A stretch of 62,218 nt of DNA, filler included, from Hausera hauseri (taxonomy: Eukaryota), in the NCBI GenBank assembly GCA_046269625.1. It is 11 parts of 11 records of this genome, joined end to end, with 100 filler letters (N's around TTAATTAATTAA, not from the genome) between each part and the next. Parts side by side here need not be neighbours in the genome. Positions count along the whole stretch, not along the records: positions 32,077 to 38,682 come from JBJURY010082214.1; 10 more parts are not named here. One strand, 5' to 3'. The translations under genes and the position numbers were made by a program. Positions 7,788 through 55,289 of this stretch are shown piece after piece (the stretch's first letter is position 1; each line of letters starts with the position of its first letter). The notes under the pieces were generated by a model. The model was not told the origin of the DNA, ran no database searches, and worked only from the letters and a program-made list of their open reading frames with translations.

Positions 7788-7844
7788 TTTAGATACTAGA
7801 TAGACAAAGACCGGCAGAAGTAAAAACCAACACCTTTTTCCTTA

Positions 7845-11593: not shown

Positions 11594-11849
11594 GCCACAA
11601 CGTATGCGCAAATGTACATGGATAACAAGATGTGAGGTTGAAGGAGATAAAAAATTGTAGACATTGGTATTAGCGAGTGGTAGATTATTAAGAGTTAAGT
11701 AAAAGTCTGAAAGAGCAGTAAAATGTACATATTTGTGTAAGACAGTGAGTCTATATTGTATGTTATATTGTGCGTCAGTATTTGAGAGTTATTTAGTAAA
11801 AAGTAAAGCGAAAGAGGTGTCACAGACCCTATTGAGTGATGTTCTAACA

Positions 11850-17618: not shown

Positions 17619-17718
17619 NNNNNNNNNNNNNNNNNNNNNNNNNNNNNNNNNNNNNNNNNNNNTTAATTAATTAANNNNNNNNNNNNNNNNNNNNNNNNNN
17701 NNNNNNNNNNNNNNNNNN

Positions 17719-21000: not shown

Positions 21001-21850
21001 ATCTAGGGGGCACACTGGAGTTAAATTTTAAACAACAACACCAATGTGTGTAGAAGAGCTGACAGATCATGCACAATAAATGTGGAAAAGATCTGATGAT
21101 ATATCAGTGAGATATAACAATTTGAATGATGTAGAGTGCGCACTGGAGTCATATGATAAACTACAGTCACTGACATCTAACAATTTGAATATACTAAGGG
21201 GCGCACTTGAGTCAGACGTTAACCCACCATATCAATGTGTACACAAGTGCTCACTGATGATGCAAAATAAATCTGGTTCAGATAGGATGATGTATCACTG
21301 AGATATAACTGTTGGAATAATGTAAGGGGCGCACTGGAGTCAAAATTTACACAACAATATCAATGCATTTAGAATTGCTCCCTGATGATGCACAATAAAT
21401 CTCGTGCAGATCGGATGATGTTTCACTGAGATATAACTGTAGTAATAATATAGGGGGCGCACTCGAGTCAAACTTTACCCAACAATATCAATGCGTTTAG
21501 AACTGCTCACTGATGACGCACAATAAATCTCGTGCAGATCGGATGATGTTTCACTGAGATCTAACAGTTTGAATAACCTAGGGGGCGCACTCGAGTCAGA
21601 TGTTAACCCACCATATCAATGTGTCCACAAGTGCTCACTGATGATGCACAATAAATCTGGTGCAAATCGGATGAAGTATCACTGAGATATAACTGTTGGA
21701 ATAATGTAGGGGGCGCACTGGAGTCATATGTTAAAAACCAAAATATGAATGTGTGTAGAAGTGTTCAGTGAGGAATCACACTAAGTTTCGTCCAGATCGG
21801 ATAATGCATCAGTGAGATATATCTTTAGTAATGATATAGGGGGCGCTGTG
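21001..21850. repeat. 128-bp satellite, right arm
   Basis: The CAC of GGCGCAC falls at 21204, 21332, 21460, 21588, 21716 (exact 128-bp spacing). Confidence 0.93.
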
Positions 21851-30560: not shown

Positions 30561-32089
30561 GCAGTTCATGGAGACAGCAACCAACATTGTCGGATTCAAA
30601 CATTTACATATACACTTTTAAGATTATTTTATCTTTTTTGTGATACATCTCTATTTCATCCACTCAATATCTACTACTCCCATGGCCCATTCCGTTTATC
30701 ACATTCTTTTTGATATCTGAGATTTCTGAGGTTAATGTAAAAAAAAAAAAAAATACAGATTTTAAACTGGTTTTCATATCAGTGTCACGCTTTGTTCATA
30801 CATTTGAATGGTGGTGGTAGATCTCCGTGTGACTGTGAGTTATGAGTTCTAGGCAGCTGATGCCACGGTCAAGCAGTTATTGAGTTATTGTAAGTAAACT
30901 GTTACCAATTGTTGGGTACACTGGAAGGTATATACATTTTAATAAAGAAATTTTCATTATAACATAAAAGGCGTGTAACATTGCTAGGTTTATATAGATA
31001 ATACCACTTCACTAATTATAAAAAGAGGGAAGGAACAAATACACATTTTAAATGTACGTAACTCATTTCTACCTATAATATAAGCTTGTGTCTTGGAAGT
31101 GACATTTGACACAATGAATGCATTTTATCATAATGTCACAGCAAGAAGGTCTTTCATTATTTTATTATCATACTAATTTTCGTCTGGCTTTTCAAATTAC
31201 TAAAGGTAAATTCTTTTGTCCTGTCTGATTCAGATATTTCCAAATGCCAAACTAGCTGACCCTTATCAGGTCGAGACACAGCTAGAATACAGGAACAATA
31301 GAATAAACTGTCGCGTGAAACAGCTTTCAAAATTAGGAGTGGTCGTTGCCGCTTTAAATGTCACCGGCAATCAGCTGTGTTATAGATAAGCACATACTGA
31401 TGTTCTCTATTTCTTTTGTGCTTTCATATTCTTTCTCATCAGGTGACAAGACGAATTCTGGAAAATTTAAAAACCAATTCATGGGGTTTTTTTTTAAAAT
31501 TATGTTTAATTTTTACAGAACTTGTGATGATATATTACTCATTAAAGTTAACAGGATGTTGCCCGTAACCATATGTTTACATGTGATGATAGAGACACTA
31601 ACATTTCTGTAGACCATATATTCAATGTTTTCCAGAGTATGTGATTATATATTTCATAATGGAGACAGTATGGAAATCTTGAGTGTGGAAAATACAAACA
31701 TTCTTACTAGGGACAGCACAGACATTCGTACTGCAGACAATACAGACATCCTCAATAGAAACATTGCAATTATTGTAGCTGGGGACAGTGCTGTCAGAGG
31801 CAACACAAATTCGTGTATTTCTGTAACAAACAAAAAATATACAGTTATTTCAAACTGGAGTCAGATTATTCATCTCATGGAAAGAAGGCACACTATATTC
31901 CTGTTTAGTTTAGTCAAAGGGTCGACATCTTTTCACATGGATACGTATCCATAAGTGCTCACACTACATTCCTGATNNNNNNNNNNNNNNNNNNNNNNNN
32001 NNNNNNNNNNNNNNNNNNNNTTAATTAATTAANNNNNNNNNNNNNNNNNNNNNNNNNNNNNNNNNNNNNNNNNNNNTACTAGGTGGTAG

Positions 32090-32760
32090 CTTGATACGTC
32101 TAAAAAATATGGCATGGAAATTAATTCACACAAGACACAGTTGAGGCAAATAGAAACAGAGGATTCATATAATCTTTTAAATTAATAGACAAAACCTAGA
32201 AATAGTTGCATTTCAAATATCTGGGATCCATGTTAAGTGATGCTGAAACATAACCAGCTAAAAGAGCAAAATAGCAGTTTCAGTTGTGGCAAATGGGCTA
32301 ATCTGGAGAGATAAATGTATCAATCCAAAGACAAAGTTGATGCACACATATTTCTGTATGCTTGCATAGTATAGATATTAACTAACAAACAAGAAAGCAA
32401 GATAAAATCAGTTGAAACAAGAATGATCCTTAGACAGTCATTCATATGTCATGTTACAAATATTGAGACTGAGACGGTGTAGAATATAATAAGAAGAAAT
32501 GCCAGGCATACAAAGACCTGATTTCAAAATTAAAGGACAACAAAACTGCAGTTTTAAGGTTGTGTGACAAGAAGCACTTACCTGACCAACACCTTGCTAA
32601 AATAGAAAGGAAAAAGAGAGGTAAAAACAACATGCAATGAAGAGATAATGTCTGGAAATCGACATGAAAAGTCCCTTAAAGGATTGCAAAGGTTTGTTCA
32701 AGAGACAACAATAGAGAAATACAGTACAGTTCAGCATCTGACTGTTAATGCCCTAATAAT
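32090..32760 (+). mobile_element. Decayed RTE-like LINE fragment
   Basis: KYGMEINSHKT, FKYLGS, IWRDKCINPKTK in broken frames. Confidence 0.6.
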
Positions 32761-32831
32761 AACTTACTTTATGGCACACACAAAGGAAGTTATTTTTTCA
32801 TGTTCAGATTGTTTTCTAGCTGGAATGGAGG

Positions 32832-33236
32832 ATGAGATCCATGCCCACAAGGCATACATTTCCACATGATGACTTATCTCCAAATGCTTTAAAACGTACA
32901 CTTATACAAGACACAATAATTTTTAAGTTATTAGATGATAAAGACAAAGTAATTTCTAACAAAATAATGACAGCAATTACGAAAACAAATTACGACGCAG
33001 AGGTACCACCTAAAACTAACATAATCAACCATAAAATGACACCTAAACCCACACGAGCGGTGTATAAATATTCACGATTAGAAATAATATGCATAGGATC
33101 AATAACCCCTGTAGTTTTGATAATAATATTGTTAATAATGGTTAAAATTTTATACAAGCGACACAAACCAAGAAGCTGGGTTAGAATCGATATGCGAAAT
33201 CTAACGAATCCGTTAGACACAGATAACCCTAGCTGA
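32832..33236 (+). CDS. Membrane-anchored ORF remnant in the 3' internal region of an LTR retroelement
   Basis: Single hydrophobic helix IICIGSITPVVLIIILLIMVKIL followed by basic YKRHK tail; the true 5' end is probably lost near 32866. Confidence 0.5.
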   Translation: MRSMPTRHTFPHDDLSPNALKRTLIQDTIIFKLLDDKDKVISNKIMTAITKTNYDAEVPPKTNIINHKMTPKPTRAVYKYSRLEIICIGSITPVVLIIILLIMVKILYKRHKPRSWVRIDMRNLTNPLDTDNPS

Positions 33237-33305
33237 CGATTACAGTTAGGGATTGCAATATACGCAACCCTAGGTAAAGAGATAACCAAACGACATAGAG
33301 TTATC

Positions 33306-34673
33306 TTGTGTAATAAAAATAACAATAGTAAAACCACAACGATTACCTCCCTGATTTGTCTGATAACCGTTGTGCTGTGTCTAAGTATCGTGATAAATAA
33401 TGTATTGACTCTTGTTTTTACAGTCTCAACTGCTACGTTCCACCAGATCCAGTCTATCAACCGCTCGAAACATTGGTACAGTAACGTCAAGAACCACATG
33501 ATCAATGCTAACCCCTCTAATCAATACTTCGTATCCCACAATGATAACATGACTAGTTTAAACTATCCACAGACTCCGCAAATTCCTAACAATATTAAAG
33601 GATACAGTATGGCAAATCGATCTTTCGCCATAATGCAACTCACTAAAGCTACGTCGTTTCTGCTAGAGGACATAATAATATTACCCGATCGGTTCCATTC
33701 TATGAACCTGTATGGTGTGGTGGGTCAAATCCAGATAAAGACCACAGACAAAAAAACCTCCATCAAAGGCGATCTAATTAATGTCGATCCTGAACACGCC
33801 TTAGCGTTCGACTATACCTTTCTTCAAACCAATAATTTCAAAATCCGTTCATGCACAAATCGTGTAATACTGGCAATAGAAATAATTAAACGAGAGAAAT
33901 TTTACCCCACCCTACCAGAAGGAAGATGTTTCAATCTCCCAGAACCTGACTATGTCAAGTACAAAAACATTCCCTACAGAAGATTGGAAAAAGTCACAGA
34001 TAAGGACATGGTCATAGCAGCCGTAAATCTGGCCTATGACCAGTGGAATCAGCTTCAACCCATCGAAGCTTCGATTCTAACGTTAAACGGAGATACTTTA
34101 CTATATGGAATTATTACACCGAGGCAGCGTATCAATAATTTCGACACGCATATAACTGGCCTCACAGAATCCAGTATTAATAATCAAATCGATCCCATGG
34201 ATTTTTATCGGAAGGTGACAGAAGTAATAACGGACAAAGTGATTATCGGAGCCGAAGTGGTTGAAATGGTTGTGAACCATTTCAAATGTCCAATCCGACG
34301 GATAGCTGGAGTGCGTGATATATTATATCACGAGGATGTTATCCGTCGGTACCAGTTATCATCTAATACTTATAAAGAATTGGCCCGAAAGTTTTATGAT
34401 ACCAAGGGCTTCTCTCTTCGAAGCACTGCCTTAGCGCAGTGCTATCAATCCATCTACAAGCAACTAAAATGGTCTGATGAGTATATTACTCAAAGTACGG
34501 CCTCCGATACGGTGCGAAAAGCACCAACAGCATCACAATGCGGAAGAAAGCGAAAAATCCAAGTGGACGAAACTATTATACTAGACGAGGAGATATACGA
34601 ACCAGATTCCATACGGTACAAATCCAGAACCACAGACAAATACATCCACATGCCTCTAATGTTGGATCAGTAA
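33306..34673 (+). CDS. Accessory ORF: degenerate retropepsin-like segment plus REX4/ISG20-like DEDDh exonuclease fold, apparently catalytically altered
   Basis: EASILTLNGDTLLYGIITPRQRINNFDTHITGLT...FYRKVTEVITDKVIIGA...IAGVRDIL parallels REX4 (RVSIVN..G.VLYD..VKP...V.DYRT..SGI...V..LLK.RILVGH...RDT); ExoI D-x-E not visible; first ATG at 33498. Confidence 0.6.
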   Translation: MCNKNNNSKTTTITSLICLITVVLCLSIVINNVLTLVFTVSTATFHQIQSINRSKHWYSNVKNHMINANPSNQYFVSHNDNMTSLNYPQTPQIPNNIKGYSMANRSFAIMQLTKATSFLLEDIIILPDRFHSMNLYGVVGQIQIKTTDKKTSIKGDLINVDPEHALAFDYTFLQTNNFKIRSCTNRVILAIEIIKREKFYPTLPEGRCFNLPEPDYVKYKNIPYRRLEKVTDKDMVIAAVNLAYDQWNQLQPIEASILTLNGDTLLYGIITPRQRINNFDTHITGLTESSINNQIDPMDFYRKVTEVITDKVIIGAEVVEMVVNHFKCPIRRIAGVRDILYHEDVIRRYQLSSNTYKELARKFYDTKGFSLRSTALAQCYQSIYKQLKWSDEYITQSTASDTVRKAPTASQCGRKRKIQVDETIILDEEIYEPDSIRYKSRTTDKYIHMPLMLDQ

Positions 34674-34709
34674 TAAATTGAGGACAATTTCTCAAAACCC
34701 CCGTCGAGT

Positions 34710-35433
34710 TGTTGATGAACTTCGTGTCTTAATAACTTTGAACTTTGTCTTAATAACTTTACCAACGAATGATCATGTGTAATAACTGTGCAATGATTTA
34801 TTTTATAAATGATCACGTATTATATAACTGATCGTACTATGTAACGTATATTTAATTTTGTAAAATGGAAACTGACATGTGATTTTCCTTTGTGATTCAT
34901 GATTTTTACGTGATTCTAACGGAATTTTTCATGCGAACGTTGTTTTATTTATATTATGTCATACAATTGGAATACTATATAAAGTGTGATTTTGTTCATT
35001 AAAATCAGAAACTTTTTATTGACAATGACATCACGTAAGTGTACTCATTCCTTCTTTGTATATGCTTGTTAAATTCTTGATTGTTATATGGTATTTGAAT
35101 AGAGTTATCATTTTATTTTTCAAGTATTGTTGTGTTTTTATCAATTAATAAAAGTAAATAAATAAGTTTCAATAATATTGGAAATTCTTCGTCCAGGTAA
35201 AAGCGACCTGACGGAGGCCTCATTAAAACCCGTTTAACGTATAAGATAGTAAACCATAAGTCAATAAACGAGATAAAATATTCTTGAGTATTCTTGTAAC
35301 ACATCACCTACTCACGATTAAGTAAGATCATATACGACTCCTACACGTTAAGACGCAAATTGTTCTACTCAATAGTTGACGAAAAGCTTATTAAATTGAT
35401 ATTATAGCCCGACCAATATTGAGTAACTGAACA
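34710..35433 (+). repeat. Long terminal repeat (~724 bp)
   Basis: TGTTGA...TGAACA termini; preceded by PPT-position sequence TTGAGGACAATTTCTCAAAACCCCCGTCGAGT; TATATAAA ~34976, ATTAAA ~34998; followed by a PBS. Confidence 0.75.
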
Positions 35434-35436
35434 AAC

Positions 35437-35454
35437 TGGTTCCGTGACCCGGGA
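35437..35454 (+). promoter_or_regulatory. Primer-binding site (tRNA-His- or tRNA-Glu-like)
   Basis: TGGTTCCGTGACCCGGGA begins 3 nt after the LTR-terminal CA. Confidence 0.75.
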
Positions 35455-35584
35455 TTACATAAATTTATTAGGACTTTAGGTTAAAGAAAGCAATATAACC
35501 ACTAGAAAAGGAACAGTATACCAACGAGAAGAAAGTATACCCTTTGGATTAGAATATATAGATAATTTAAGCGAAGAAGAACCC

Positions 35585-38500
35585 ATGGCAAGTAATAAAG
35601 TAGAACAGGTGATTCAGTCTAAGGCTGACTTCACCCTCCCCATGAAGAAGTTTTCCGGTAAAGAAGATATCCAAGATTTTATGATGGAATACGAAGTATA
35701 TTCCAAAAGTTTTGGCTGGGATGACAAACAAAGAGTAGAAAGGTTACCCCTTCATTTGAAAGGGACGGCTCTTATGGTTTATTTCCAATTACCTGAAGAA
35801 GATAAGAAAGACTGGAAGGAAATTAAAGATAAGTTGCCTCAAAAGTTTCTAATAGATCCCTCTGGAAAGGGGAGAATCGAAGAATTTATAAGACGGAGGC
35901 AACGGAAAGACGAATCCGTCCAGGACTTTGTATGTGCATTGGAAAAACTTGCAGCGAGAGCATACCCCGACGTAACGATACGAAACAATGCATTGTTAGC
36001 CCAGTTCCAATACGGATTAGAAGAAAGATTACGAACAATAATTTCTCAAGCAGACCCGCCTACGTTCCAAGAGGCAATAAGAAAGGCACGAAAAGCCGAA
36101 CGGGATGCGGAACTGTATAGGTGGAATAAATCCAGAAACAATAATAATGGCTACGATAAAAGACGAAATAATAGTACACAAAAGTATCAACGGTACGACA
36201 GAAATAGAAGCCCATCACAAACATCAGCAACCGAAGCTGAATCAGATGGAGAAAAGAAAGTGAGATTCAATTTACGGAATGACGGAGAAAAAGCAAGTTA
36301 TAAGAAGAAATATAAGAAAGATGGAAGATCATTACCCAGTATAGATTCTGAAGGAAGATTAAAATGTTTCAATTGTAATAAATATGGACATATAGCGAAA
36401 TCATGTAGATCACGCAAAAGGGACTCTTCAAAGCCAAATGATAAAAATAAACAGAGGAAAGATAATGTATCAGCAACGTCGGACGAATCGTCCGACAGAG
36501 AATATGAAACAGATGATAGTGCCAGTGAACGAGAAGTCAAAAAGAAAGATAAGAAGAAAGAAAGTATTAACTATATAAATGATTCATTACCCTCACGTAT
36601 GAAGAAACAGCTAGAAATAGAAGTAAAGGAGTATAAAAGACAACAGCAAAGGTTGAAAGAGAGTAATATTTACATGGTAGGTGATCCATCGGAGAAACAG
36701 ACATCTCGCAAAGGAAAAAAGAAAAGTAATAAGAAAATAATTGATGTAGAAGTTGGATCAAGAGAAACGTCGACAGAGAGGAAAGATGTAGTAAATGAAA
36801 AGAAAAGAGGAAGAAAGAAGAGTAACATCAGCACACCCTCACCCTCATTTAGTCCGGGAGAATCCCAAGACATGCCAATATTTGACGAAGCTATATTAGA
36901 TCAGGTAATAAGGAACCCTGGTGTAGACTTAGACGAAGAAGATGACATTATAGAAGCATTAATGATTATTGATCCTAATAATATAGTCGATATAGACAAA
37001 ACAACTACGACGATATTGAAGATAATCACCAGTAAAATAACGGCAAAAAGAATGAATGAAATTCTACCCCAATTGGTATTACTAGCCCAAGACACTAGCC
37101 CCGTAAGAGAGATGGCTAGAACTGTGTTAGCCAAAGCTGCGGAGGAAGAAAAAGGAAGAAATGAAGCCATTAGGATAACAATAAAAGAAGGAAACCAAGA
37201 CATGAGGGTCATCCGGATGAATGAAATTGATGACATACAAACCTTACGAGAAAGGATAGAGGAGCTGGAACCATTTTATCAAGCCAGTCCCTATGGATTA
37301 AGTTATTGTGGAAGGACACTATACGGTTACGACAGACTACTAAGAATCGGATGCAGAAGTGAGAATTATAATCCAATAAATATAACTGAAATACATCCAG
37401 AGGCAAGAGCACAAGCAACTGTGGAAGAAATCATAAGAGAAATGGAACCACGGGAAGTAGAAAATCCCATGGGTGATACGCAAGACGTTACGGTCCAAAC
37501 GGAAGCCAAGAGAAGAGGCAGGCCAAGAGGGACAAAGATAAGCGACATTCGCAATAGGAAAGATAGAAATGAAGAAATAGTAAGACGTTTATTACTAGCA
37601 GGAACAGATGGCACTCCTGAATCGGTGGACATAGATCCATTACTAAGAACGTTATTGGCCAAGATGCACACGTCATTTGCCTCTTTTGACATGCAGGCAG
37701 TAATCCCAGATGAAGTATTTAATACGTTACGTAATAATATGCTGTAGACAATAAGTAGACAATTCTACGAGAATCTAGAGGAAGAAAGGATAAATGAGTT
37801 ACATTAAGTAGATATTTTGGAAAGGATGTTCGCTACAAGCATCACACGAGAAAAAACCCAAACAGCTATATATTATTTTTTATATAAGATAATAGTAATT
37901 AACCATCAGACTCAAAATCTAGAGGACATTGAACGAAACATAAAGACAGTGGTAAAAATTATGAAAGATACTCTGGGAAATTGGGCTCAATGTAGAGGTG
38001 GCTGGCTGAACAGCCTAACGACTAATATAGATAGGACAGAAGAACGAGAAAGAATAAGAGATAAACCAGTCGGGACGCAACCAACTACGTCTCGATCAGG
38101 CATAACAGGTATGTCAATAATGGCGATTATACAAATCCTACTAATAACATCATTACTAATGTCAAAAGCCGTAGGTATAGTGGCATATGACTGTTCTAAA
38201 CCCAGTGAAGGACAAAAGTATTCTCTAGTTGACTTAGAGAAATGCCCAAAAGCCGACCCAGAGTAATTGACAACTACTGGTGGCCTTACATATTGGGTGT
38301 ACCAACAGTCTGAATTCATAAAGGCAAAGATTAGAGAACGTTACGTGAAAAGATCTTTCTTTCTATTCAATTGTGCCTATTATTCAGGAAATTCAGCCAT
38401 AATTGAGACTACAACACCTTTCGAGCCAATAATAATATCCCGAGCAGAATTTCAGGATAAATTTAAGATTGACATCATAACTATACAAAATGCACATATA

Positions 38501-38682
38501 CCTGCAGTAAGAAATAGAATAAAGTACATGAGAATTTTTAGAGCTGGAAGGATAGATAAGACAATGGAAGGAACCTGTAAAGGAGTGGATTACGATGTCG
38601 GAGGCACCATAGCACCTAGAACGGTAGCCATAGAAGATTATCAGGTACAGCTGAAAGAATACGAGGGATTATTCGATTCCCA
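35585..38682 (+). mobile_element. gag: Single reading frame Gag - ubiquitin-like domain - AT-hook - signal peptide - chuvirus-like glycoprotein; three in-frame stops; runs off contig end
   Basis: ORFs at 35585, 37817 and 38267 are in one frame; Ty3/Gypsy capsid (KFSGKEDIQDF...RRQRKDESVQDF), CCHC CFNCNKYGHIAKSC (36365-36406), hydrophobic MAIIQILLITSLLMSKAVG then IVAYDCSKP...YSLVDLEKCP. Confidence 0.82.
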
Positions 38683-38782: not shown

Positions 38783-41594
38783 CGAAAATCTTTTCCTCGT
38801 GACAAAGGTCACGCGTCATTAGACAAATAGGTCACGAAGCTTTGACAAACATGTCAAATCTTTTCCTCATGATTGCCGATACGGGTCACTGACCACGGTC
38901 ACTGACAAAGGTTACGATTGGTAATTGTCGAAAGCTTTTCCTCGTGATTGCCAATACGGGTCACTGCCCAAAGTCATCGATCACGTGTCGTGTACAAAAA
39001 ACGCTGATTCGACTTTGTCTGTAAACGGTGTTGCTTACGAAACAAGTTACAAGGTTACTAAAAGTTAGTGTTGTTAAGAATATATAGCTATAAAAGGTCG
39101 GTTAGATTAATGTTAAAAGACGTGTTTTATTTGAGTGAACAACGGAAACCTGTATCTACCACGTTTAACCTCTGGTCACAAATGGGCATTTTTAAAAAAA
39201 AAAAATAGGAGGTACCAATAGCCTGGCAGCCATCCTGTCGGGGTAAGGGGCGTGACTAAGGCCAATTCAGCGGGTTTTCTTCATCATCATTCTTTTTTGA
39301 TGATGAAATTTCTTTAGTTATGTATAGTAAGGGGGCTGTGGTGGTGACGTGTCTTTGTATCGGTAACATGTTTGGTATTATTAGGTGCCATAAAGAATGG
39401 GTCAAGGAAGGGTCATACTAGCTGTTAATGTCGCAGTTCTCAAAGGGGTTGGGAGTGGTGTAGGTGATCTTCTTTGTGCTTAGGGACACAGAAGCGGGAT
39501 ATTTTCTGTTATGGTCGTGTTTCTTAGAGTGCTTGTTATAGTTTTGGTCAACTTCGTCGCGCTTGTGCGTGTCTTTGCGAGTGAATCGGGGTAGCGCAGG
39601 GCGAGATTTTCTGGAAAAGTCGCGTTTCTTAGAGTGCTAGTGGTGGTTTTGGTCGATTTCCTCACATTTGTTGATGTCTTTGGGAGCGAGTAGGGACAAG
39701 GAACGGTGATATTTTCTGTTATGGGCGTGTTTCTCAAGCGTGCTGCCGGTGGTGTAACTCGATTACCTCATGCTTGTGCGTGTTTTTGGGAGCGAGTCGT
39801 GACAAGGGACAGTGATATTTTCTGTTAAAGTCGAGTTTCTTATGGTTGCGGCTGTGGTTTAGGGCAACGTTTGCATGTTTAAGGACACGAAAAGGGAGAT
39901 ACTTTCTGTTAAACTCGCGTTTCTTAGAGTGCTGCCGGTGGTTTTGGTCGACTTCCTCGCGTTTGAACAGGTCTTTGCGACTGAATCGGGGTAGGGAAGA
40001 GGAATATTTTCTGTTAAAGTCGCATTTCTTAGAGTGCTCGTGGTTGTTTAGGTCGGCTTCATCGTGCTTGGACGTGTCTTTGTGAGTGAATCGGGGTAGT
40101 GCAGGGCGAGATTTTCTGGTAAAGTCGTGTTTCTTAAGGGTACTGCCACTGGTTTAGGTCGACTTCCTCGCACTTGTGGCTGTTTTTGGGAGCAAGTTGG
40201 GGTAAGGAACGGCGAGATTTTCTGTTCCAGTCACGTTTCTTAGACTGCTCGTGGTGGTTTAGGTCTGCTTCTTCGCGCTTGTGGACGTCTTTGGGAGCGA
40301 GTCGGGACACAGAAGCGGGGATATTTTTCTGGTAAAGGTCGTGTTTCTTACGGGTACGGTCAGTGGTTTTGGTCGGCTTTTTCGCGTTTAGGGACATATC
40401 TTTGCTGTTATGGGTGTGTCTTCAAGGACAAGGGCGAGGGTTTAGGACAGGTTGTTCATGCTTAGGGGCATAAGTTTTCTGTTAAAGGTGGGTTTCTTAC
40501 GGACGCAGGTGTGGTTTAAGTCGTGTTTAGGGGCATGTAAGTGGGGTATTTTCTGTTATGGGCGTGTTTCTCAAGCATGCTGCTTGTGGTTTAGGGCGAC
40601 TTCATCGCGTTTGTGGGTGTTTTTGGAAGCGTCGGGGCATGGAACGGCAATATTTTCTGTTATGGTCGTGTTTCTTAGAGTGCTGGCGGTGGTGTTGGTT
40701 GGCTTCATTATGTTTAGGGACATGTCGGGACACGGAAGCGGGGATATTTTCTGTAAAGGTCGCGTTTCTTACGCCTGCAGGCGGTGGTTTAAGTCGTGTT
40801 TAGGGGCACATAAGTTGATATTTTTCTGTTAAAGGCAGGTTTCTTACGGACACGAGCATGGTTTAGATCGTGTTCAGGGACATGTAAGTGGGATATTGTT
40901 TAGTTGTCGTGTGTATCTTAATGCTGTATACTGATTCTAATAGCGAATGCATATTTACCCAAGTAAAAATCTACCAACATTTTCACATTTTATCACCCCT
41001 TAGACGAATATAGAAATATTATTCTTAAGTTTATCCGACAATGAGTCCAAGACTCCAATATTTATCCGCGTACAATGGCTTCCTTTATCCAGCAGAGCGC
41101 TCAAGCAAAACATTTTAACATTCATCTAACCAACATTCCAGCATTCGTCCATGATAACATCTCGCTTGTTCGCTGTCCAGCAAAGCAAAACAAAACCATA
41201 TGGCTGAGTGCCTGTTTCTGACCAGAGGTTAAACGCGGTGGATAAAGGCTTCCATTGTTCACTCAAATAAAACACGTCTTTTAACATTCATCTAAGCGAC
41301 CTTTTACAGCTATACATTCTTAACAACACTAACTTTTTGTAAGCAACACCGTTTACAGACAAAGCAAGATCAGCGTTTTTTGTACATGACACGTAATCGA
41401 TGACCTTGGGCAGTGACCCGTATCGGCAATCACAAGGAAAAGCTTTCAACAATGACCAATTGTAACCTTTGTCAGTGACCTTGGTCAGTGACCAGTATTG
41501 GCAATCACGAGGAAAAGATTTGACATGTTTGTCAAAGCTTCATGACCTATTTGTCTAATGACGAGTGACCTTTGTCATGAGGAAAAGATTTTCG
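38783..41594. repeat. Inverted pair of ~400-bp repeat copies (38783-39190 vs 41208-41594) enclosing a 105-bp array
   Basis: CGAAAATCTTTTCCTCGTGACAAAGGTCAC...TTTAACCTCTGGTCA is the reverse complement, with substitutions, of TGACCAGAGGTTAAAC...GTGACCTTTGTCATGAGGAAAAGATTTTCG. Confidence 0.92.
39480..40900. repeat. Degenerate tandem array, ~105-bp unit with 74-76, 84 and 94-bp variants
   Basis: Anchor TTTCTG recurs with its C at 39506, 39611, 39716, 39822, 39906, 40011, 40116, 40222, 40329, 40405, 40479, 40553, 40657, 40751, 40826. Confidence 0.9.
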
Positions 41595-41679: not shown

Positions 41680-42010
41680 TGCGTTTTCCACTATACGGAC
41701 ACATCATCTGTTATCGGACTAATTTTCACTATAAGTCCAACTCGCCCGTTTTTTAACGGGATACATTTTCCACTATAAGTCCGACTCGTCCATCATTAAA
41801 GGGAAACCTTTTTCACTATAAGGCCGACTCGCCCGTCATTTATGTATACAATTACATAGTATAGAGGGAAACCTTTTTTCACTAAAAGGCCAACATGGCG
41901 GTCGTTAAAGGGAAACCGTTTGCACTATACGGCCGACATGCCCGTCGTTAAAGGGAAGCCGGACACACTGTAAGGCCGACATGTCCATCGTTAAAGGGAT
42001 AACTTTTTCA
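41680..42010. repeat. ~43-bp tandem subrepeat
   Basis: CACTA/CACTG anchor at 41689, 41727, 41771, 41814, 41880, 41923, 41966. Confidence 0.85.
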
Positions 42011-43588
42011 CGACAACGACACGCGTTTGTTAACGGACATAAACAAGACGTTGTTACAACCGACATCTTTGCTGTCGACACGAACGTTGTTCCAGTCGAC
42101 ACGCGATTACTGATAAAATATTTCCATGTCACTACAAGTTTACCATGACACGCGATTACTAATAACGACGCGCATTTCAGGGGAAGGGCCAAGGGGGAGG
42201 TATATACGGTATATAAGAAAATACTCCCTCCCCCTTCAAGGGGGAGGACGTTGAGGTAAAGGGGAGGTTACTCTTTTAGGAAAATGTTTTAAGTGGCAGA
42301 TACATTGTGTATGTTCTTAATTAGGTAATTAAGGGTAAGGGAGGTGTAACGGGAGATAATTTATGGGGGAGGGGGCCCCGTTTTTGTCTACTATACTACT
42401 AATTGGAGGCGCATAATTACGCGAGTTCTTGCTTGTTTTTTCTTGTGTCAAGTGTGTCAATACTTGCTATAGGGCTTTATTGAGCTAGTCAAGTGGTCAT
42501 TTGGGCCCATTGTGGCCCCTTTCTTCTAATTATGCGTCGTCGAAGTCACTCTTTTTTTAAATTATATATTTTGGTAAAGTTGTATAGGGACATGTTGGAT
42601 AGGGGAAATGTTGTTGCTTGTTCGTGTATCTTGGTAAAGTTTTAGTGATAGGGGAATGTGGTGATGGGAAAATGGTTTGTTAGTTATCATCATCATCGTG
42701 TGCCGTTGGTGGACGGTTCTGTACTTTTAGTAGTATAAGGGTATGTTAGATAGGGAGATGTTGCTTTTTTAGTGACTTGGTAAAAGTTGTAGTGATAGGG
42801 GAATGTGGTGATGGGGAAAATGTTTTATTAGTTATCATCATCGTGTGCCGTTGGTCGGAAGTTTGTTGGTTTGAGTGAAATGTTGGTTGTATTGGGAGTC
42901 TGTTGCTTATTTAGTGACTTTGTAAAAGTTTTAATGATAGGGGAATGTGGTGTTGGGGAAAAATGTTTTATTAGTTATCGTCATCATCGTGTGCCATTGG
43001 TGGTCGGTTCTGTACATTTAGTGTTGTATGGATAGTTGGATAGGGAAATGTAGTGATTTTTAGTGTCTTGTCTCTTGTTGTGTTGGTCTATCAGTCAACA
43101 TCATCATTGCTTGTCTACAAATCAACATCATCAGCAAGTGCCGTTGGTAGGAAGTTTGGTGGTTTGTTGGAAACATGTGGGGTGGAGAAAATGCTGTTGC
43201 TTGTTTTGGGTCTTGTTGTTCATGTATCTTGATAAAGTTGGACTTGTATTGGGGAAATGTCACTTGTCAGTCGTCAACACTATCGTGGGTCGTCGTAAAG
43301 TTGTATTTGGGAAATGTTTTATTAGTAATCGTGTGTCATGGTAAAGTTGTAGTGACATGGAAATGTTTTATTAGTAAACACGTGTCGACTGGAACAACGT
43401 TCGTGTCGACAGCGAAGATGTCGGTGATAACAACGTCTTGTTTGTGTCCGTTAACAACAAACGTGTGTCGTTGTCATGAAAAAGTTATCCCTTTAACGAT
43501 GGACATGTCGGCCTTATAGTGTTTCCGGCTTCCCTTTAACGACTGGCATGTCGGCCTTATAGTGCAAACGGTTTCCCTTTAACGACGG
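41900..43588. repeat. Second inverted pair (41900-42165 vs 43319-43588)
   Basis: Minus ORF 41905-42192 and plus ORF 43175-43519 give near-identical pseudo-peptides (CHGK.VVTWK.FIS..VSTGTTFVSTAKMSV.TTSCLCPLT). Confidence 0.92.
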
Positions 43589-44999
43589 TTGTCGTAGCTT
43601 TTATAATACACTACGACTGTGTGATACATCATTAGTGGATTCGTATATCTATTCAATATGACGGTGGTAAACGATATACTCCAGGAGTCGTGTATTCACC
43701 ACACCATCGACAATAACGGCACGGATAACAACCATAAGCAACACAACCCACACCAACTCTATACTTCCGCAATTATATGGGTAACGAACATTCAGCACGA
43801 CTACAATATACGGGAGAATGCCTGGCCGTTTAAGAAATAGTCAACTTTATTTACAGTAAATATTTACAGGCATGATAAAGCATATGCATATGATAATCTT
43901 ACTTCGAAACGCCTCTTCATGTGTCAATTCTTCTGAGGCTAAATATCTAACTAAACATGTGTTGGCTCGCTTTACACATACAAACACATCGACGGTTGAT
44001 TGTCACACTAGTGGGACGTCCGTCTAACAACACACTACAACTGGGAGAGGAGCTCTAGCCGGTCTTAGGCGAGCCTCAATCCTTGTGTGCAAAAGGGGAA
44101 CATATAGACAAGTCTACAAACAATATACGTGAGCCATCATTACATTTAAACACGTGATATAGCTAAGATGTGCACATCGTCCGTATAACTACCAATGTAG
44201 TCTATGAGCAATGTTCATTATAGGTATATCTGGTAATCTATACCCCGTTCTATATCGTTCATTAGTCTTTTACGTTCAATGTCTTGATGTGCACACAAAA
44301 TCCCGAGATCCTTAAACATCAATCATAGTTAACATACTCACAGTTTGTCTGAATTCCTACACAGCGCTGGGTCTCCGATAAAACATCGCTATCCAGTAGT
44401 GAAGTGGCTGATACGCCATTTTAACGAATCCTTGAAGTAAACTCTTCGTGATTCTCAAACTTCCGTTGATATAAGATAACATATGAATTAGGAGGCACGT
44501 ACCTTTTGATTGCAGAAGAACGATACTGCAGTTCTACTGCTGCAACAAACGTTGGTGGTTCTATATAAACCACGTTGATTTTTAACGTTGAAGCTGAAGC
44601 ACAATTTTAACACAATTAAACTCTGCATCTAGCAGAGATAATCCAGTAGAACGCAAACGACATGAGCTCAAAACCGGCTCATCACATTTTCGAAGTCCTA
44701 GGAATACCAATAATTCCACTGAAACTGAGCACATCTGCTCACACTGAAGTTCTAACAAAAAATGCCCTGCGTTTCTATGTTTCCATTCGTTTTGTTGTTT
44801 CTGTCCCACGCCTACGCAATTCGCGTTCCTTTTGTCTCGCCCCCACCTTCCGGCCTATCGTTTCAAGTGGTCGTTCCTCACTTCCATCCTGTGCAGGTGT
44901 GTTTTTGGCGTTTGTCTTTTGTGTCGCCACCTGCCTTTTAAGTTTTATGCAGCTGCATCCGCTGGCGGTGTATGTAAAGTTTGGCGTTTCATTTCCTAT

Positions 45000-45485
45000 G
45001 ACACGGATCCTGGAATGGTGATATTTTCTGTTAAAGTCGCGTATCTTAAGGTTGCTGGTGGTGGTTTAAGTCGTCTTCATCAGACTTTAGTATGTCTTTG
45101 GGAGCAAGTCGGAACATGAAAGCGGCACAATTTCTGCTAAAGTCGCATTTCTTAAGGTTACTGGAAGTGGTTTAGTTCGTCTTCATCATGTATATGGTAG
45201 CAAATTGGTCATGGAAGAGGTAAATTTTCTGTTAAGGTCGCGTATCTTAAGGGTGTTGGAGGTGTTTTAGGTCGTCTTCCTCAGACTTTAGTATGGTTTT
45301 GGGGCCAAGTCGGTCACAGAAGGGTCATAATTTCTGTCAAAGTCGTGTTTCTTAAGGGTGTTGGTGGTGGTTTAGCTCGTCTTCATCAGACTTTAGTATG
45401 GTTTTGGGTCCAAGTTGGTCATGGAAGGGTCATAATTTCTGTTAAAGTCGTGTTTCTTGGGGTTGTTGGAGGTGGTTTAGTTCGA
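45000..45485. repeat. Second array of the 105-bp family
   Basis: Anchor C at 45028, 45134, 45229, 45334, 45439. Confidence 0.88.
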
Positions 45486-47160
45486 GCTAGAGGCTGACTT
45501 GAAAGGTCTTGATCAGTAATGATGATGATCCGCTACACTCTATTGCCGATCCTAAGAAGAGACCTGTATCGTCCCACTAGGCTCACATGTCAAAGATGGA
45601 GGTTTTGGAAGGTTTCGTTCACTATACGGCACATGCTGNNNNNNNNNNNNNNNNNNNNNNNNNNNNNNNNNNNNNNNNNNNNTTAATTAATTAANNNNNN
45701 NNNNNNNNNNNNNNNNNNNNNNNNNNNNNNNNNNNNNNCAGGGCGCAATCAAACCCCTGAAGTCAGACAATTATTATTTTAAGATTTCCTGTCAAATGAT
45801 TCAGTGAAAATTCACATTCCGTTTGGAACTAACAGTATTATTCGTTGACTAATTGTCTGACACGTACTGCATAACCTGAGCTATAAATTATTGTGAGAAG
45901 CGATAATACCATCAACATGCAACTTTTGTAACTCATCTAAGACTAACTATTCGTAAATGATGAATTTTCAGAACGTTATCGTTTCTAATTATTTTATATG
46001 TAATTCAGTATTTTTATGAATAATATTAGATTTTATCTGAGATAAAATTTTAATTAATTTGCAGAAAATTTTTATAGGTCGATGTACTTAAATATATACA
46101 AAAAAACGATTATATTTTGACCGATTTTTGACTTAATTGTGGGGATAAATTAATTAGCGGCGGCATTGTTTCATATATGTTTAAGTCAATAAATATCATC
46201 TTTACGCATTATGGTACAAATTAAAATCTATCAAAAATCAAAGCACAACTTACATATTGACTTAATACTGGATAACAGTTGATAGAACAGCTGTAAGACT
46301 TAAGGTGACCAAAACAAAACTACTGACAAAACGTTTCATAAATTATGTGAACATTGTCGAGTCATTTTGCACTTGCGTTTCTAGACTCCAATTAATTGGA
46401 GTCTACACTGAAGTATACAACAACTCGCATAACCGAAATGTACTTTTCTTCAACTTTTCGGAAATTTGTCAATCTTCTGTTACCGATTGTACATAGTAAT
46501 TAGCTGTATTGTAATTAGATATTGTTAAAATAATTAATGGGAATATTTGTCGATTGATTCAAATTATTAGTTGTTTATTTGATATTTCTGCGATAACAAT
46601 TGTAAAAAGAATGTGCAGTGATGTAAAGAATGTGCAGTAATTGATAAAAAAGAAAAAATCTGATTATTGGTATATCAATTGTGACAGAACGACGAAAAAT
46701 GACGTAATCATTGAATCGCTAGTATATAAACAAGTGAGATTTTTAGTTGAACAACAACTACCAAACTACCGAATTAGAACTACCGAAACTACCGGACTAC
46801 AGAATTACAGAACTTCAGAGTTTAGAAAAGTGTATTTAGGAGTGAAATCCAATACGACGATTTGCGAAGAAATTGATGACATTCTATTCGAAGTTGAAGA
46901 TAGAATCGAAGTTATCGCGAAAGTTTGGGAATTCGATAAATTCAGAAGTCAGTGATCACGAAGTTAATCAGCGTTATTGATATTGGTATAAATTACATTT
47001 TTGTTATTGAATTGTCTTAATTTGCTATATAGTTTCCATCGATTCTTAAAATCGATTAGACGACACTAGGTTTTAAATTCTGGGCGTAAATTATATAGTT
47101 AAGAAAGAACCGTTTGTTAATTTGACGCACAGGATAACGCACGCAGTACCTGCATTCGTT

Positions 47161-49500: not shown

Positions 49501-49918
49501 AAAGAATTCAGACATATAAAAACTCAAGTAGATGTGTCAGGAAAAGAACAGCAATTCTCCAAAAGAATGTATAAAGAATACAAATAATATCTTGAGGAAG
49601 ACGTTAACAAGGAGAATGATCAAGAGCAAATGTATGTGTAAGGTTTCTCCTTACAACAAACTTAAAAATAAATTTCCTAAACTTAAAATCGTAATACTTA
49701 AAATAAATAACAAATTCAAAATTTACTGACAAAAATCACATAAAATTGAAAATAAAACACTAATTTGCTAATGATTAAAATTTAAACCTCAAAATCCAAA
49801 TTTTACGGATTCACCACANNNNNNNNNNNNNNNNNNNNNNNNNNNNNNNNNNNNNNNNNNNNTTAATTAATTAANNNNNNNNNNNNNNNNNNNNNNNNNN
49901 NNNNNNNNNNNNNNNNNN

Positions 49919-52900
49919 GAGTAGTTTCAGCTGACGTGGTATCGTCAATAAAGAAAGCTGGTTTTAAGTTATTAATATGGACTGGTTGTTCTTTGTTGTC
50001 CTTAAGAATGACCGCGTGATGGGAACGAAGTGAAAGAAGTTTATAGGGGCCCGTGTACCGTGGCTGAAAACCGACCGGAGTTTGGTTTTTTAACCAAACG
50101 AATTTAGCTGAGTAAAGGTCGTTAGGAATATATGGTCGCTTACTGTGTAGAACTCTGCAAAAAGTGTCTTTGCTAATGGCAACAAAATGTTCCTGGGCTG
50201 CCCGAAGTGTTTCATCAGTAGGTGAGTTGTCTCGCTCAGTTAACTCGAAAAGGGCACGTAGTGGTGTGCCAAATAGGGCCTCCGACGGGGAGCAACCGGT
50301 TTATGTGGATAGGGTGTTGCGCCATCCGAGTAAGACAAAAGGTAAAAGGTTTACCGATTGGGGGTTGTGTTCAGCTAGGATTCTGAGGGAGGTTTTCATT
50401 GTACGATGAAAACGTTCTAAAAGGCTGTTCGACTGGAGGTGGTAGGGTGTTGTGTCGATGTGAGATATGCCCAGTCGATTTACTAATGATTTAAAGAGAC
50501 TCAACTCGAATTGTGGGCCTTGGTCGGTGATGGTGTGTTTGGGTGAGCCAAATCGGCTGAGCCATACACGTATAAAGGCGTCAGCTATATACCCAGTGTT
50601 TGTGGATTGAAGTGGAACTGCTCCTGGACATCTAGACGAATGGTCCATTATTGTGAGGATAAATTGGTGACCGTTGTCTGGTGGAAGAGGACCGACGATA
50701 TTGAGATGGACAGTATCAAAGCGTGACGTACAAAGAAAATGATAAAGTGGCGGCTTTAGTTGTTTAGTGATTTGGAATTTTTGGCATGCCGCACACTCCT
50801 TAGCCCATGTCTGCACGTCTGTTTTCATTGATGGCCATGTAACTTGGCCTTTTAAGAGGTGTATGTGGCCTTAGATCCTGGATGGTGTAAGGCATGAATA
50901 TTTGTGAAGGCTATTTTTTGGAGAGATGGAACTAGTATGACTTTAGGCCATCCAGGGTCGGTGGTATCGAATGCCACGCCATCAATGATTTTGACAGATT
51001 TATAAGAAGTGAGAGCTTCATCATTCGGTTGATTCCGTCGAAGCGTCTCATTATCTAGAATTGGTTTAAAAGTTATCGAGTCAACTGAACGTGACAAAAA
51101 ATCAGCCACGACGTTGTTTATGCCATTTATATGTTTTATTGTAAAATTGAAAGTTGACAAATAGGATATATGTCTTTCTTGACGTAGAGAGGGGGATTTC
51201 ATGGTAAAAATGTGTAGCAGCGGCTTATGGTCCGTTTGAATTGTGAAGGTGCGTGATACTAAGAGGTGTTTAAAATGTTTGACTACGAGGACTATTGCTA
51301 AAAGTTCTCTATCGAAGGTAGAGTACTTTTGTTCTGTTGTAGTAAATTTTCTAGAAAAGAACTCTAAAGGTTGATGCGTGTTATTTTTAAATTGGTGGCG
51401 TACTGCGCCTGCGGCGATAGTTGATGCGTCTGTTGTAAGAAAAAGTTCTGATGTAGAATCTGGATAGGCTAATATTTCTACTGTTTTGAGATTTGTTTTT
51501 AGGTGTTCGAAAGCATTAACAAGTTCAGGTGTCAAATAATAGGTTGTTTCTTTTGACCAGAACTTAAGGTAGCGAATGGAGCGGTTAAGGTCGAACAATG
51601 CGGCACGTATTTATGAATAAAATGCAAAGTACCGAGTAAGGAACGCATTTCTGAAGTTGTGCGTGGTAATTGAATGTTTTTCAGTTGAATGATGCAGTCT
51701 TGCTGTGGAGCATATCCGGTTGGAGTAATAATGTGTCCGAGGAAATTGATTTTTTTTAAAAAGGAGCATTTTGCGAAGTTTATTTGGAGAATGTTTTGCT
51801 GGAGTCGTTTGAAAACGATGCGTAGATGCTCAGTATGCTGTTTAGGTGATGAAGAGGCAATTAAAATATCGTCGATGTAGGGATATGCGAAGTCTAAGTC
51901 TGCAAGGACGGTGTCTATATGCCTCTGAAAGGTTTGGGCTGCACTGTGTAAGCCAAATGGCATATATAGATATTCAAAAAGTCCGAAAGGAGTTGTTACT
52001 GCCGTTTTTGGAATGTCAGCTGGTGCTACAGGGATTTGGTGGTATGCCTTATGGAGATCAATGTTTGAGAAAATGGTGGAGCCGTGAAGTCTATGTAGGA
52101 TGTCATTGATTAAAGGCAAAGGGTAGGCATTTATGGTTGTGATCTGATTCGGTTGCCTGTAGTCACCGCATGGGCGAAAAGATCCGTCCTTTTTAGGGAC
52201 AACATGTAATGGCGAAGCCCATGAAGATTTCGATCTTCTGATAATGCCTAAGCGTTGTAGTTCTGAAAATTCGGCTTCGACTGCCCGCCTGCGACGTGGA
52301 AATAAAAGTCGTACCTTTTGTCGTATTGGTCGTTGGTGTTCTGTAACAATATAATGAAAGTGTGCATGGCTGGTTTAAAGGTTTTGTCTTTTTGCAACAA
52401 ACGAGTACAAGAAGAAAATACATAGGATTGCAACTCCAGTGGAAGTGATGATAAAATGGTTGACGGTGATGCTCATGTTGCGATTTGCTTAGCGTCGGTT
52501 AGGGAAAATGTTGCACTATCAAGACTAGGTGGAATTTGGTGAAATATTTTGGAATTGAAAATGGTGTTGCGAGCGGTTTCGTTAGCAAAAGGTGTCAAAG
52601 AGTTGGCGTTATCATATTCGTCAACTGCATTATAGTAGTCTCTAAATATGGGATGATTATAATAATACTTTAAATTAATGTGGTATTTTAAGAACAGGTT
52701 TACAACCAGTGATCGTCCGTTCGGTCGTCGAAATGATATTCACGGAATTAGGTTGTTCAAATTGGTTTGAGTTAATCAAGCAGCGGCGTTTGCAATCTAC
52801 CAGTAGATGGTAATGGGACAGAAAGTCTGATCCCAATATATACGTGTTTGGACATTGGTAACTGTAAATGTCCAATTGTATGTGCTTTTTTGTGTGATAA

Positions 52901-54207
52901 TGTAAAGGTAATATTGGTAGTGCCGAAGATGTTTAATTCTGCCCCTGATGCAGTGAATAATTTTTGTGTAAATGTGTTTTGTTATGTACCTCATGTTCAG
53001 GAGGAAGCAGAGAGACAGCTGCTCTTGTGTCTATGAGGAAGTTAATGTTATGTTTTATTGGGATAACAACAGTTGCCTCCAACGTAAAAACTGCAAATGT
53101 TGTGTTTCGGCTGTCATTTTGCAAAGTGGTACCTTCGCTAGAGATGGCCGATAACTCTAGCGGCGTTAATAGTTTTTTTGCTGTGTTTGGTGTTGTTTGT
53201 TAGTTGAGGGTTGCCTAGATTCATATGTGTTAAAATTGCAGCCTCGTAAACATTTTATTGCCTTAGTGTTGAATTTAGAATGGCAGATGCAAATGGTGCT
53301 GCTTAACTTGAATTTAGGTTCAAAAAATTTGCATCCGATGCAACATTTGTGTGCATTGTTTTTAAAATTGGTATGGTAATAACAAATCGACGATCGTACG
53401 GGCGATGGCGATCGTCTGTTGCGCAGTGGTTGTGTATTGGAATGGGCTGCACCAGGGAAATTTCGTTGTGAGAGTCAGTTGGTTTAACTTAGTGTTTATG
53501 CTGTTGATGGTTTCTAGCAGCGCTTTATTGTCTGCTTTAAATTGAGCTATTTGTTCCTGCAATGTGTTTTGTTGTGTATCGTATGGTGTGGTGGTAGTAG
53601 AGATAAGTTGGGGAGTATGCATCTGCAATAATTCATATGATTTGTCAGCTAACTCAGTTAGTTTGTGAAGATCTAATGATTCTTCAACCACGGTTAACGG
53701 ACCCCTAATTTGTAAAGGTAGAGCATGGAGAAAATAACGTCTTAAAAATCTGCGTTGTGTTCCTGTTACTCCGAGTGCTTTCAAGTTGTTTAGAGCTATT
53801 TGTAAGAATTCGGAGGGCTTTTGATTGCCTGTGGTGTTCTCATTGAAGTAGCGTTGAATAATAGAATCCAAAGACGGCTCTGTAAGCCTAAGAACAGCGT
53901 TGTATAGCTCCTTGTAAGGATCAGGATGTTCGAAGAGTTGTAAAAGGTTGGGTATTTAAGTTTTAATTGAATTTGTTAGATAGTAGAAAAGACTATGGGC
54001 CTTTGGAAGAGATTCGGTGATGTTTGCAGATTGCAGCCAGAGTTGATGGAATTGAAGCCAAGTTTGGCTTGAGTTCTGACTGTCAATGAAGAATTCGTTA
54101 CAGTGATGGTCGAAAGGGAGGTCTGAAGGTGTGACTGTACCGGCGCAATATAATATCGGAATAGATTTTGGCTTTTCCGTTGTATCAATCGAAGATGGAG
54201 AGTTCAT
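49919..54207 (-). mobile_element. CsRn1-type Ty3/Gypsy copy 3 (gag-PR-RT-RNase H-IN with GPY/F motif), decayed
   Basis: Gag LWLQSANIT, double CHCC; FLIDTRAAVSL; DLHKAYHQIP, MPFGL, YPYIDD; TTDAS, YSTFDREL; TDQGPQF, ERFHRTMK; PRYTGPYKLL at ~50040-50065. Confidence 0.95.
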
Positions 54208-54722
54208 GCTGCCAAGAATTTTGAAATTGATTTGCATAAGGAATTGTACCTGAAAAGGAGAAGATCATAAAAGTTGTGGATGATGAGACCGTTGTAGGCT
54301 AAGAAAAAGCTAGAAGTGCCAAGGAGGTTAGCAAGGTGGTGGTAGATGCGTGTTGCGTGTAGTGTGTCCTTCCACGTGTGTATATTTTTTATTATTAATT
54401 AAAAAAAAAGATAGGGGGTATAGACAACGGGTGGGCACTGCGGCGCGCGATGCAAGCGCGCCCGGCGCTCGGACGGCGTTGGCACCACAGCCCGACGCGT
54501 GGCACCACTGCGCCGGCGTGGCAACCTCTGGGCGGCCCAATCTCCGTAACCAGATCTGGCAACTGCTCGACGGTTTTTTCGGTAAAGTGTATTATGGTAG
54601 ATAAGGCTACCATCTAAAGCAACTGGAACCATTTGAGTATTTAGTACAGCGAACATTTTGCACGGTGACGGAGCGACGCGTTGTTGCGCGAAATATGCAA
54701 CTTGATTGGGTGTTGCACTAAC

Positions 54723-55230: not shown

Positions 55231-55289
55231 TCGTGTTCGGATAAGTCATAAGTAAGAACTTTAACTTTATACTTACGATTTCCGGACGT

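Follow-up and report, generated by a model that had tools for sequence, protein, structure and literature searches.

A decayed retroelement frame in Hausera hauseri that joins Gag, ubiquitin-like and probable Bcl-2-like domains to a class III-type envelope glycoprotein

Ty3/gypsy elements with the order GAG-ENV-POL and a gB-type glycoprotein have been reported in Nematoda, Bryozoa and Platyhelminthes; they include Smed_errantivirus_1-6, errantiviruses of cysteine type C1a with an envelope (Env) of the gB type, as in herpes simplex virus (HSV) (Chary and Hayashi, PMC13524379). The giant gypsy-like planarian elements Burro/GYPSM1 are described as encoding Gag, Ubi2/SUMO-like, BCL2-like, env and pol parts in one open reading frame (ORF) that spans ~4900-5100 aa and also has MATH, BIR and ankyrin motifs and 2-3 knuckles; their env is described as F-like, homologous to gypsy Env and to baculovirus/paramyxovirus fusion proteins (Arkhipova and Yushenova, PMC6431247). 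Chuvirus glycoproteins are also found in Anakin, a group of BEL/Pao elements (PMC7642597, cited in PMC12440569 and PMC13524379), and the bdelloid long terminal repeat (LTR) elements Juno and Vesta carry in the env slot an ORF3 for a DEDDy exonuclease with intact catalytic residues (Rodriguez et al., PMC5408684). Here we analyse a 62,218-nucleotide stretch of DNA from Hausera hauseri (assembly GCA_046269625.1), hereafter the window, which is a string of short contigs with N spacers between them. One of these contigs (positions 32077-38682, JBJURY010082214.1) holds a frame that runs from a gag gene directly into an env gene.

We consider this locus to be one decayed copy from a multi-copy family of Ty3/gypsy-type LTR elements whose single frame held Gag and a ubiquitin-like domain (Ubl), then a probable Bcl-2-like domain, an internal signal and an Env of class III type, with protease, reverse transcriptase (RT), RNase H and integrase likely following; we put the probability of this explanation at about 0.84. 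With stops read as X, positions 35585-38680 contain 3 stops in 1032 codons, where ~76 are predicted from base composition (Poisson P ~1e-28), and the remaining five frames contain 30-103 stops each. A preliminary description of this DNA had reported a single frame of more than 1030 codons with only three stops (37745, 37805 and 38264), and both the frame and all of the motifs quoted for it were found. The order of domains is capsid, CCHC knuckle, ubiquitin fold, AT-hook-like motif, probable Bcl-2-like domain, hydrophobic signal and chuvirus/gB-type glycoprotein (Table 1). The earlier statement that no D(T/S)G protease lies between the knuckle and the glycoprotein extends to the entire frame, as a motif scan for [LIVMFW]D[TS]G found none in 35585-38680; the linker thus lacks a protease, as had been said, but it is not featureless, since it has the ubiquitin fold and the probable Bcl-2-like domain. 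The same description placed env before any pol. Env does directly follow gag, but position 38682 is the contig end at an N spacer, about one quarter into env; because the contig stops there, ‘before any pol’ is the most that the window can show, and any pol further along would be invisible.

The fusion of gag to env is real. A stop-free protein of 1130 aa (P0003) is colinear with the whole gag-to-env frame (35% identity over 1047 columns, E 3e-174), through capsid, Ubl, Bcl-2-like region, signal and Env, and the order from linker to Env is repeated in P0005, P0006, P0014, P0055, P0084 and L001. A search with P0003 yielded 1369 proteins at E ≤0.001, of which 150 were listed and 23 of these were scanned for domains. 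In five of the 23 (P0008, P0012, P0019, P0024 and P0037), one chain continues from Env into protease, RT and RNase H, and in the first four of these into integrase as well; read from DNA, L002 has one ORF of 2693 codons that runs from a knuckle through Env and protease to RT, RNase H and integrase, and P0005 has the order Bcl-2-like region, Env, protease. We also counted what lies on either side of Env in the 33 stored relatives that match the start of the mature protein: at least 80 in-frame residues precede it in 18/33, a CCHC motif lies upstream in 7/33, a protease motif lies downstream in 10/33, and 6/33 have both CCHC upstream and protease downstream. P0003, together with the relatives that have env, protease and RT in one ORF, supports the gag-env(-pol) order and its expression as a polyprotein, as first proposed. 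Two side observations concern these relatives. Tandem D[TS]G protease-like domains, 2-4 in number, follow Env in P0005, P0007, P0008, P0011 and P0027, and P0008 has one more past integrase; the CCHC-env-pol polyprotein P0012 (HBK71150.1) is annotated in a metagenome-assembled genome of Flavobacteriaceae, most likely as eukaryotic contamination.

By profile, we assign the Env to the gB/chuvirus (class III) type, in keeping with the chuvirus-like class III glycoprotein recognized earlier. Specifically, it matches PF24664 (Monjiviricetes_fusion) with 42.7 bits against a cut-off of 27, over profile positions 5-183 of 653, and the profile is matched in full length in relatives (for example P0005, positions 5-616 of 653, E 2e-90). 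Compared with the PDB, the profile of our Env alignment (A4) returned only proteases and Ty3 Pol, and no solved fusogen; in metagenome contigs A4 gave 2 loci among 594 pattern matches, and neither A4 nor P0012 as query found anything in viral or prokaryote contigs. The window Env is 50% identical to that of P0003 and is its sister in an Env tree (support 95/95), in which 14/24 inner branches are open and which gives no order of events. The hydrophobic segment ahead of Env was surveyed in 19 relatives (18 with a long open upstream frame, and L001). Such a segment lies 17-29 residues before the YDC motif in 19/19, with a small residue at the predicted -1 position in 17/19, and a Met precedes it in only 8/19; there is none in P0003 (the closest relative), P0005 or L001. 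With the segment present in every relative surveyed and the Met in fewer than half, an internal signal that is cleaved by the host's signal peptidase fits better than a separate start.

The part of the frame between the knuckle and Env has conserved blocks (alignment A1, nine relatives), and its structure model has a mean predicted local distance difference test score (pLDDT) of 70.5, with ~90 over the first 160 residues. Its four-helix domain had no match in fold searches, whose result lists were filled by the ubiquitin fold. The Ubl aligns with SUMO-2 (VIA-align Z 12.2, root-mean-square deviation (rmsd) 1.6 over 73 residues) and gave a profile match to the ubiquilin UBL at E 2e-04; Foldseek returned ISG15 and ubiquitin rows, none reaching E 0.001. 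The RGRPR motif, which we take to be of the AT-hook kind, has a GRP[RK] core that is present in P0003, P0007, P0008, P0011 and P0018 and absent from P0005, P0014 and P0032. Repeated weak matches indicate that the helical domain beyond it is probably Bcl-2-like: PF00452 is matched at E 7e-04 in the window, 8e-05 in P0084 and 1e-03 in P0006, all under the cut-off; profile matches at E 0.009-0.04 include Bcl-xL (E ~0.03) and a viral homolog of Bcl-2 (E 0.009); and Foldseek gave human Bcl-2 at E 4e-03 with an rmsd of 8.7. This region had no usable match in the Atlas, and a wide fold search returned ubiquitin folds only. Its W....GGW motif had at first been viewed by eye as E3-ligase-like, an idea abandoned in favor of Bcl-2 BH2.

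These features suggest how the element might work. Genomic RNA would be translated as one polyprotein, of which Gag and the linker would remain cytosolic while the internal hydrophobic segment directs the Env ectodomain into the endoplasmic reticulum (ER); host signal peptidase would cleave just ahead of the YDC motif, the Env transmembrane helix would stop transfer and bring the chain back to the cytosol, and there the element’s own protease or proteases would release the Pol enzymes. Cytosolic retention of Gag, entry of an ectodomain into the ER and stop-transfer by a transmembrane helix are steps of general membrane biology. After cleavage, the Gag-Ubl-Bcl-2 piece, which in the window copy comprises the 864 residues preceding Env, would keep the signal as a C-terminal membrane anchor, and the capsid would thereby be placed beside Env at one membrane. 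The BH2-like motif and the signal are 34-65 residues apart in the 8/19 relatives that have the motif, and 44 apart in the window copy, so the cut signal would occupy the position of a Bcl-2 tail anchor. A bolder and rather doubtful extension is that the Ubl-Bcl-2-signal linker is a portable cassette that has taken fusogens of two classes (F-like in Burro, class III here), with the Env signal also serving to anchor the tail of a Bcl-2 protein of viral style. If this is true, a single cut by the host would produce a mature fusogen and, at the same time, a regulator of cell death that is bound to the membrane and linked to capsid. This raises the questions of how a one-ORF retroelement sends Env to the ER yet keeps Gag and Pol cytosolic, and of whether such elements influence host cell death.

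The copy in the window is not intact. In two public runs, contigs differ from the window copy at 1274/1305 and 45/45 of depth at stop 37805, at 244/244 and 25/25 at stop 38264, and at 350/406 and 23/23 near stop 37745. Because the stops are not common to other copies, we regard the window copy as a decayed gag-env-pol polyprotein element; in addition, two of the six Env cysteines that are invariant in 26/26 relatives are lost from it. Summed contig depth, at 3-11 on the flank, rises to at least 144 in the bin 32741-32961 and ranges between 77 and 40,000 from ~32,900 onward, which is consistent with a multi-copy family, although depth is not equal to copy number. Any spread from cell to cell, as conveyed by the label ‘infectious-type’ that had been given to the element, is suggested only by the homology of Env, in a copy that is itself broken.

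Several observations weigh against the explanation favored here. Fewer than 80 residues lie upstream in 15/33 Env matches, which may reflect truncation or separate ORFs. Where it was measured, Env identity to the relatives that bear pol is only 21-38%, in a mostly unresolved tree, and the pol of this copy’s own family is unseen, as its contig and P0003 both end within env. The Bcl-2 match is under the Pfam cut-off, BH1 is degenerate by eye and the BH2-like motif is confined to 8/19 relatives. Run X1, one of the two public runs compared, may be the window’s own source. A single ORF would yield equal amounts of Gag, Env and Pol, which is unusual for a retroelement. Finally, L001 has a single in-frame TGA (L001:3058-3060) between the Bcl-2-like domain and the signal, flanked by 999 and 402 open codons and with no Met before the signal; it could be either decay or a read-through site.

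The last two points are pertinent to the alternative that survives best, in which Env is made apart from Gag, either with translation beginning at ATG 38111 of an internal or spliced transcript, or with a stop ahead of the signal being read through in a regulated way, which would leave Gag in excess over Env and Pol. In the window copy the signal begins with an ATG, 8/19 relatives have a Met there, the L001 stop lies just before the signal between long open frames, and 13/33 Env matches have ≤45 residues upstream. However, the Met is missing from the three relatives named above, the closest among them, the junction is open in 18/33 relatives, and the window copy has no stop at the position of the L001 stop. 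We therefore think it unlikely that Env is made separately, and the ATG at 38111, suggested at the outset as a possible start, is a weak candidate. Expression of Env within the polyprotein remains our preference.

As described before, the frame sits downstream of an LTR and a primer-binding site (PBS), recognized by their signatures (TGTT...AACA ends and a PBS starting with TGG). The contig has a single LTR copy, and no second copy was found within the window, so the LTR is identified by signatures rather than as a repeat, and its ends are set by these and not by flanking sequence. The PBS may correspond to tRNA-His or tRNA-Glu, and the TGAGGAC just before the LTR-like stretch, at the position of a polypurine tract (PPT), is a sequence that we take to be common at gypsy 3′ ends. 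An X1 contig (depth 66) covers 34497-34739, from the PPT position into the LTR. It appears likely that this LTR is common to the 3′ end of an upstream element and the 5′ end of the downstream one, in a tandem or collapsed arrangement; given the shared LTR, we infer that the upstream 3′ end and the downstream gag-env belong to one element type.

That 3′ end has two coding parts. The frame end with a transmembrane-like segment and basic tail, likely the C-terminus of the preceding element’s polyprotein or of an accessory ORF, had no significant sequence match among 153 stored proteins; in P0008, P0012, P0024 and L002, accessory regions bearing transmembrane segments come at the end, after integrase. 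ORF X, the open frame that follows, has one homolog (P0002, 55% identical). As a lead only, P0002 is listed in the ESM Atlas features with PF00929 RNase_T at 0.91, with 10/10 top named matches in that family or clan, and the C-terminal half of ORF X may resemble a catalytically disabled DEDDh 3′-5′ exonuclease, loss of the acidic residues being judged by eye. ORF X had no match in Pfam or PDB sequence searches, its structure model (pLDDT 31) has no usable fold, metagenome contigs contained no ORF X locus, and a profile comparison with P0014 gave no match (probability 0.3); that no longer, fused homolog appeared among 7990 candidates is weak evidence. By eye, DEDD-exonuclease-like stretches also occur upstream of Env within the polyproteins P0024 (~110-290) and P0014 (~370-790), where they have no Pfam support.

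Table 1. Positions of the element’s features in the window
Feature	Position	Strand	Basis
Frame end with one transmembrane-like segment and basic tail	32930..33236	+	Frame 32820-33236; 5′ edge approximate
ORF X, 478-codon open frame with hydrophobic N-terminus	33237..34673	+	3′ end of preceding element
Stretch at polypurine-tract position, with TGAGGAC	34676..34709	+	Sequence; not purine-rich itself
LTR-like stretch, 724 bp, TGTT...AACA	34710..35433	+	Terminal signatures and adjoining PBS
Primer-binding site, TGG start	35437..35455	+	Sequence; 3 bases after LTR-like stretch
Gag-linker-Env frame	35585..38682	+	1032 codons, ended by contig end; stops 37745, 37805, 38264
Ty3/Arc-type capsid	35609..36106	+	dArc2 capsid 6taq E 2.6e-08; Ty3_capsid E 6e-05, under cut-off
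Single CCHC zinc knuckle	36362..36409	+	PF00098 above cut-off
Four-helix domain, kept in relatives	36929..37150	+	Alignment A1; model pLDDT ~90
Ubiquitin/SUMO-like domain	37163..37393	+	Model pLDDT ~90; fold and profile matches
AT-hook-like RGRPR motif	37511..37531	+	GRP[RK] core compared across relatives
Probable Bcl-2-like helical domain, BH2-like W....GGW	37718..38017	+	Contains two of three stops (37745, 37805)
Internal signal-like hydrophobic segment	38111..38176	+	Ends in small residues (-3, -1); hydropathy of 2.69 across 11 residues
N-terminal quarter of chuvirus-like/HSV-gB-type (class III) glycoprotein	38177..38682	+	PF24664; P0003 likeness

This 3′ end bears on a further alternative, that of a non-autonomous LTR-gag-env-ORF X-LTR family without pol that borrows RT and integrase from an autonomous partner. 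In its favor, the sequence upstream of the LTR has a transmembrane-bearing frame and ORF X with no integrase, and no pol is seen linked to this family. Against it, only ~1.8 kb of the 3′ end is present, and the transmembrane-bearing accessory regions of the relatives (~300-1100 residues) come after integrase, so pol would lie further upstream of the visible 3′ end; moreover, 10/33 relatives continue into a protease motif; P0006 and P0014 stop near the Env transmembrane segment. We consider such a family a still less probable explanation than separate production of Env. That the glycoprotein is an unrelated chuvirus-derived insertion from 38100 on, or an assembly chimera by chance in frame with gag, might be entertained because Jingchuvirales glycoprotein fossils are described as common in arthropod genomes (PMC10084718) and because the assembly is fragmented, with no listed contig covering the entire stretch, but the same junction in an independent protein only 35% identical (P0003), and the same linker-to-Env order in the six further relatives named above, effectively refute it.

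Other parts of the window contain further features. Decayed gypsy-type pol or gag-pol stretches lie at 1806-7647 (+), 7796-12601 (-) and 49863-54264 (-), the first two 72-80% alike and inverted across an N spacer; the window’s other pol pieces were considered as this element’s pol and left unassigned, as they are on separate contigs and only 22-40% like the pol of the relatives. Upstream of a gypsy pol, on the same contig, 54726-55541 (-) is an importin-5-like TPR piece (E 8e-15) with a weak CH-domain match. A GC-richer contig, possibly a virus-like DNA element or retrocopy, carries at 13530-15284 (+) a 584-aa ORF whose start is zinc-finger-like and which has an HRH-hydrophobic motif that looks HUH-like by eye; facing it at 16419-17522 (-) is a ribonucleotide reductase small subunit without introns (PF00268, E 1e-117). 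Several satellite-like arrays, whose periods are close to 105, 128, 43 and 146 bp, occupy 39400-40900, 45000-45500, 17700-21800 and 41700-43600, and around 38783-41594 there are long inverted repeats.

Comparison with described elements suggests that the locus belongs among Ty3/gypsy elements. It has a Ty3/Arc-type capsid with a CCHC knuckle, the TG...CA ends of a single LTR-like stretch and a PBS, together with a stretch at the PPT position that is not purine-rich, and the order protease, RT, RNase H, integrase is present in P0008, P0012, P0019, P0024 and L002. The preliminary description had mentioned BEL/Pao elements as captors of such glycoproteins, but the nearest known elements are not of that superfamily. 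Anakin has a glycoprotein of the same broad family, but unlike it the window element has a Ty3/Arc-like capsid and an env before any protease or pol, the pol of its relatives matches Ty3/gypsy-type profiles, and no BEL-type Pfam domain was found in the 23 scanned relatives. Nearest are the GAG-ENV-POL errantiviruses and Burro. The window frame likewise has Env directly after gag, with no pol between, and as in the flatworm errantiviruses the Env is of the gB/chuvirus type. The string VYQES, which P0003 shares with other relatives (this copy reads VYQQS), occurs three times in the Env supplement of PMC13524379, always in Smed C1a rows, and these rows resemble P0003 along their length, by eye and text search only. 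This likeness to planarian elements suggests that the host is likely a flatworm. With motifs shared in this way, the Env may have the C1a cysteine-bridge pattern of the Schmidtea group; the window copy has lost two conserved cysteines. On the features that could be tested, the window element fits the gB-type GAG-ENV-POL errantiviruses.

In layout the element is Burro-like: Env is in frame after Gag and is preceded by a Ubl, assigned by fold, and a BCL2-like domain, assigned by weak repeated matches. Unlike Burro, it has one knuckle and only 864 residues before Env, with no Pfam match to MATH, BIR or ankyrin up to E 1, and its Env matches PF24664 only, the Burro env being known here by description; it therefore differs from Burro in size and in Env class. 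If the exonuclease lead is correct, ORF X recalls Juno and Vesta, where an LTR element likewise has an additional ORF for a DEDD-family exonuclease. Unlike the ORF3 of those elements, it appears by eye to be disabled, its N-terminus is hydrophobic, and it is found at the 3′ end, in an element type that carries env as well. The gag-env-pol layout is already published for polyprotein elements of flatworms, and the window copy is one more such element, in decayed form. What may be new is a Burro-type Ubl/Bcl-2 linker ahead of a class III, rather than F-like, Env; use of the Env signal a second time as a Bcl-2 membrane anchor, which seems likely; and an accessory ORF at the 3′ end that resembles a DEDDh exonuclease in disabled form. 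The words polyprotein, ubiquitin, Bcl-2, exonuclease and Burro are absent from the main text of PMC13524379, which therefore describes neither the fused frame nor the linker domains, although the figures and bait sequences of the paper may show a fused frame. Our searches of the literature on gag-env-pol retrotransposons, on planarian elements with Bcl-2, ubiquitin-like and envelope parts together and on internal-signal processing found no statement joining gB-type elements to the Burro plan. We propose that the gB-type GAG-ENV-POL elements and Burro share one plan: a single polyprotein in which Ubl and Bcl-2-like domains come before an internally signaled Env.

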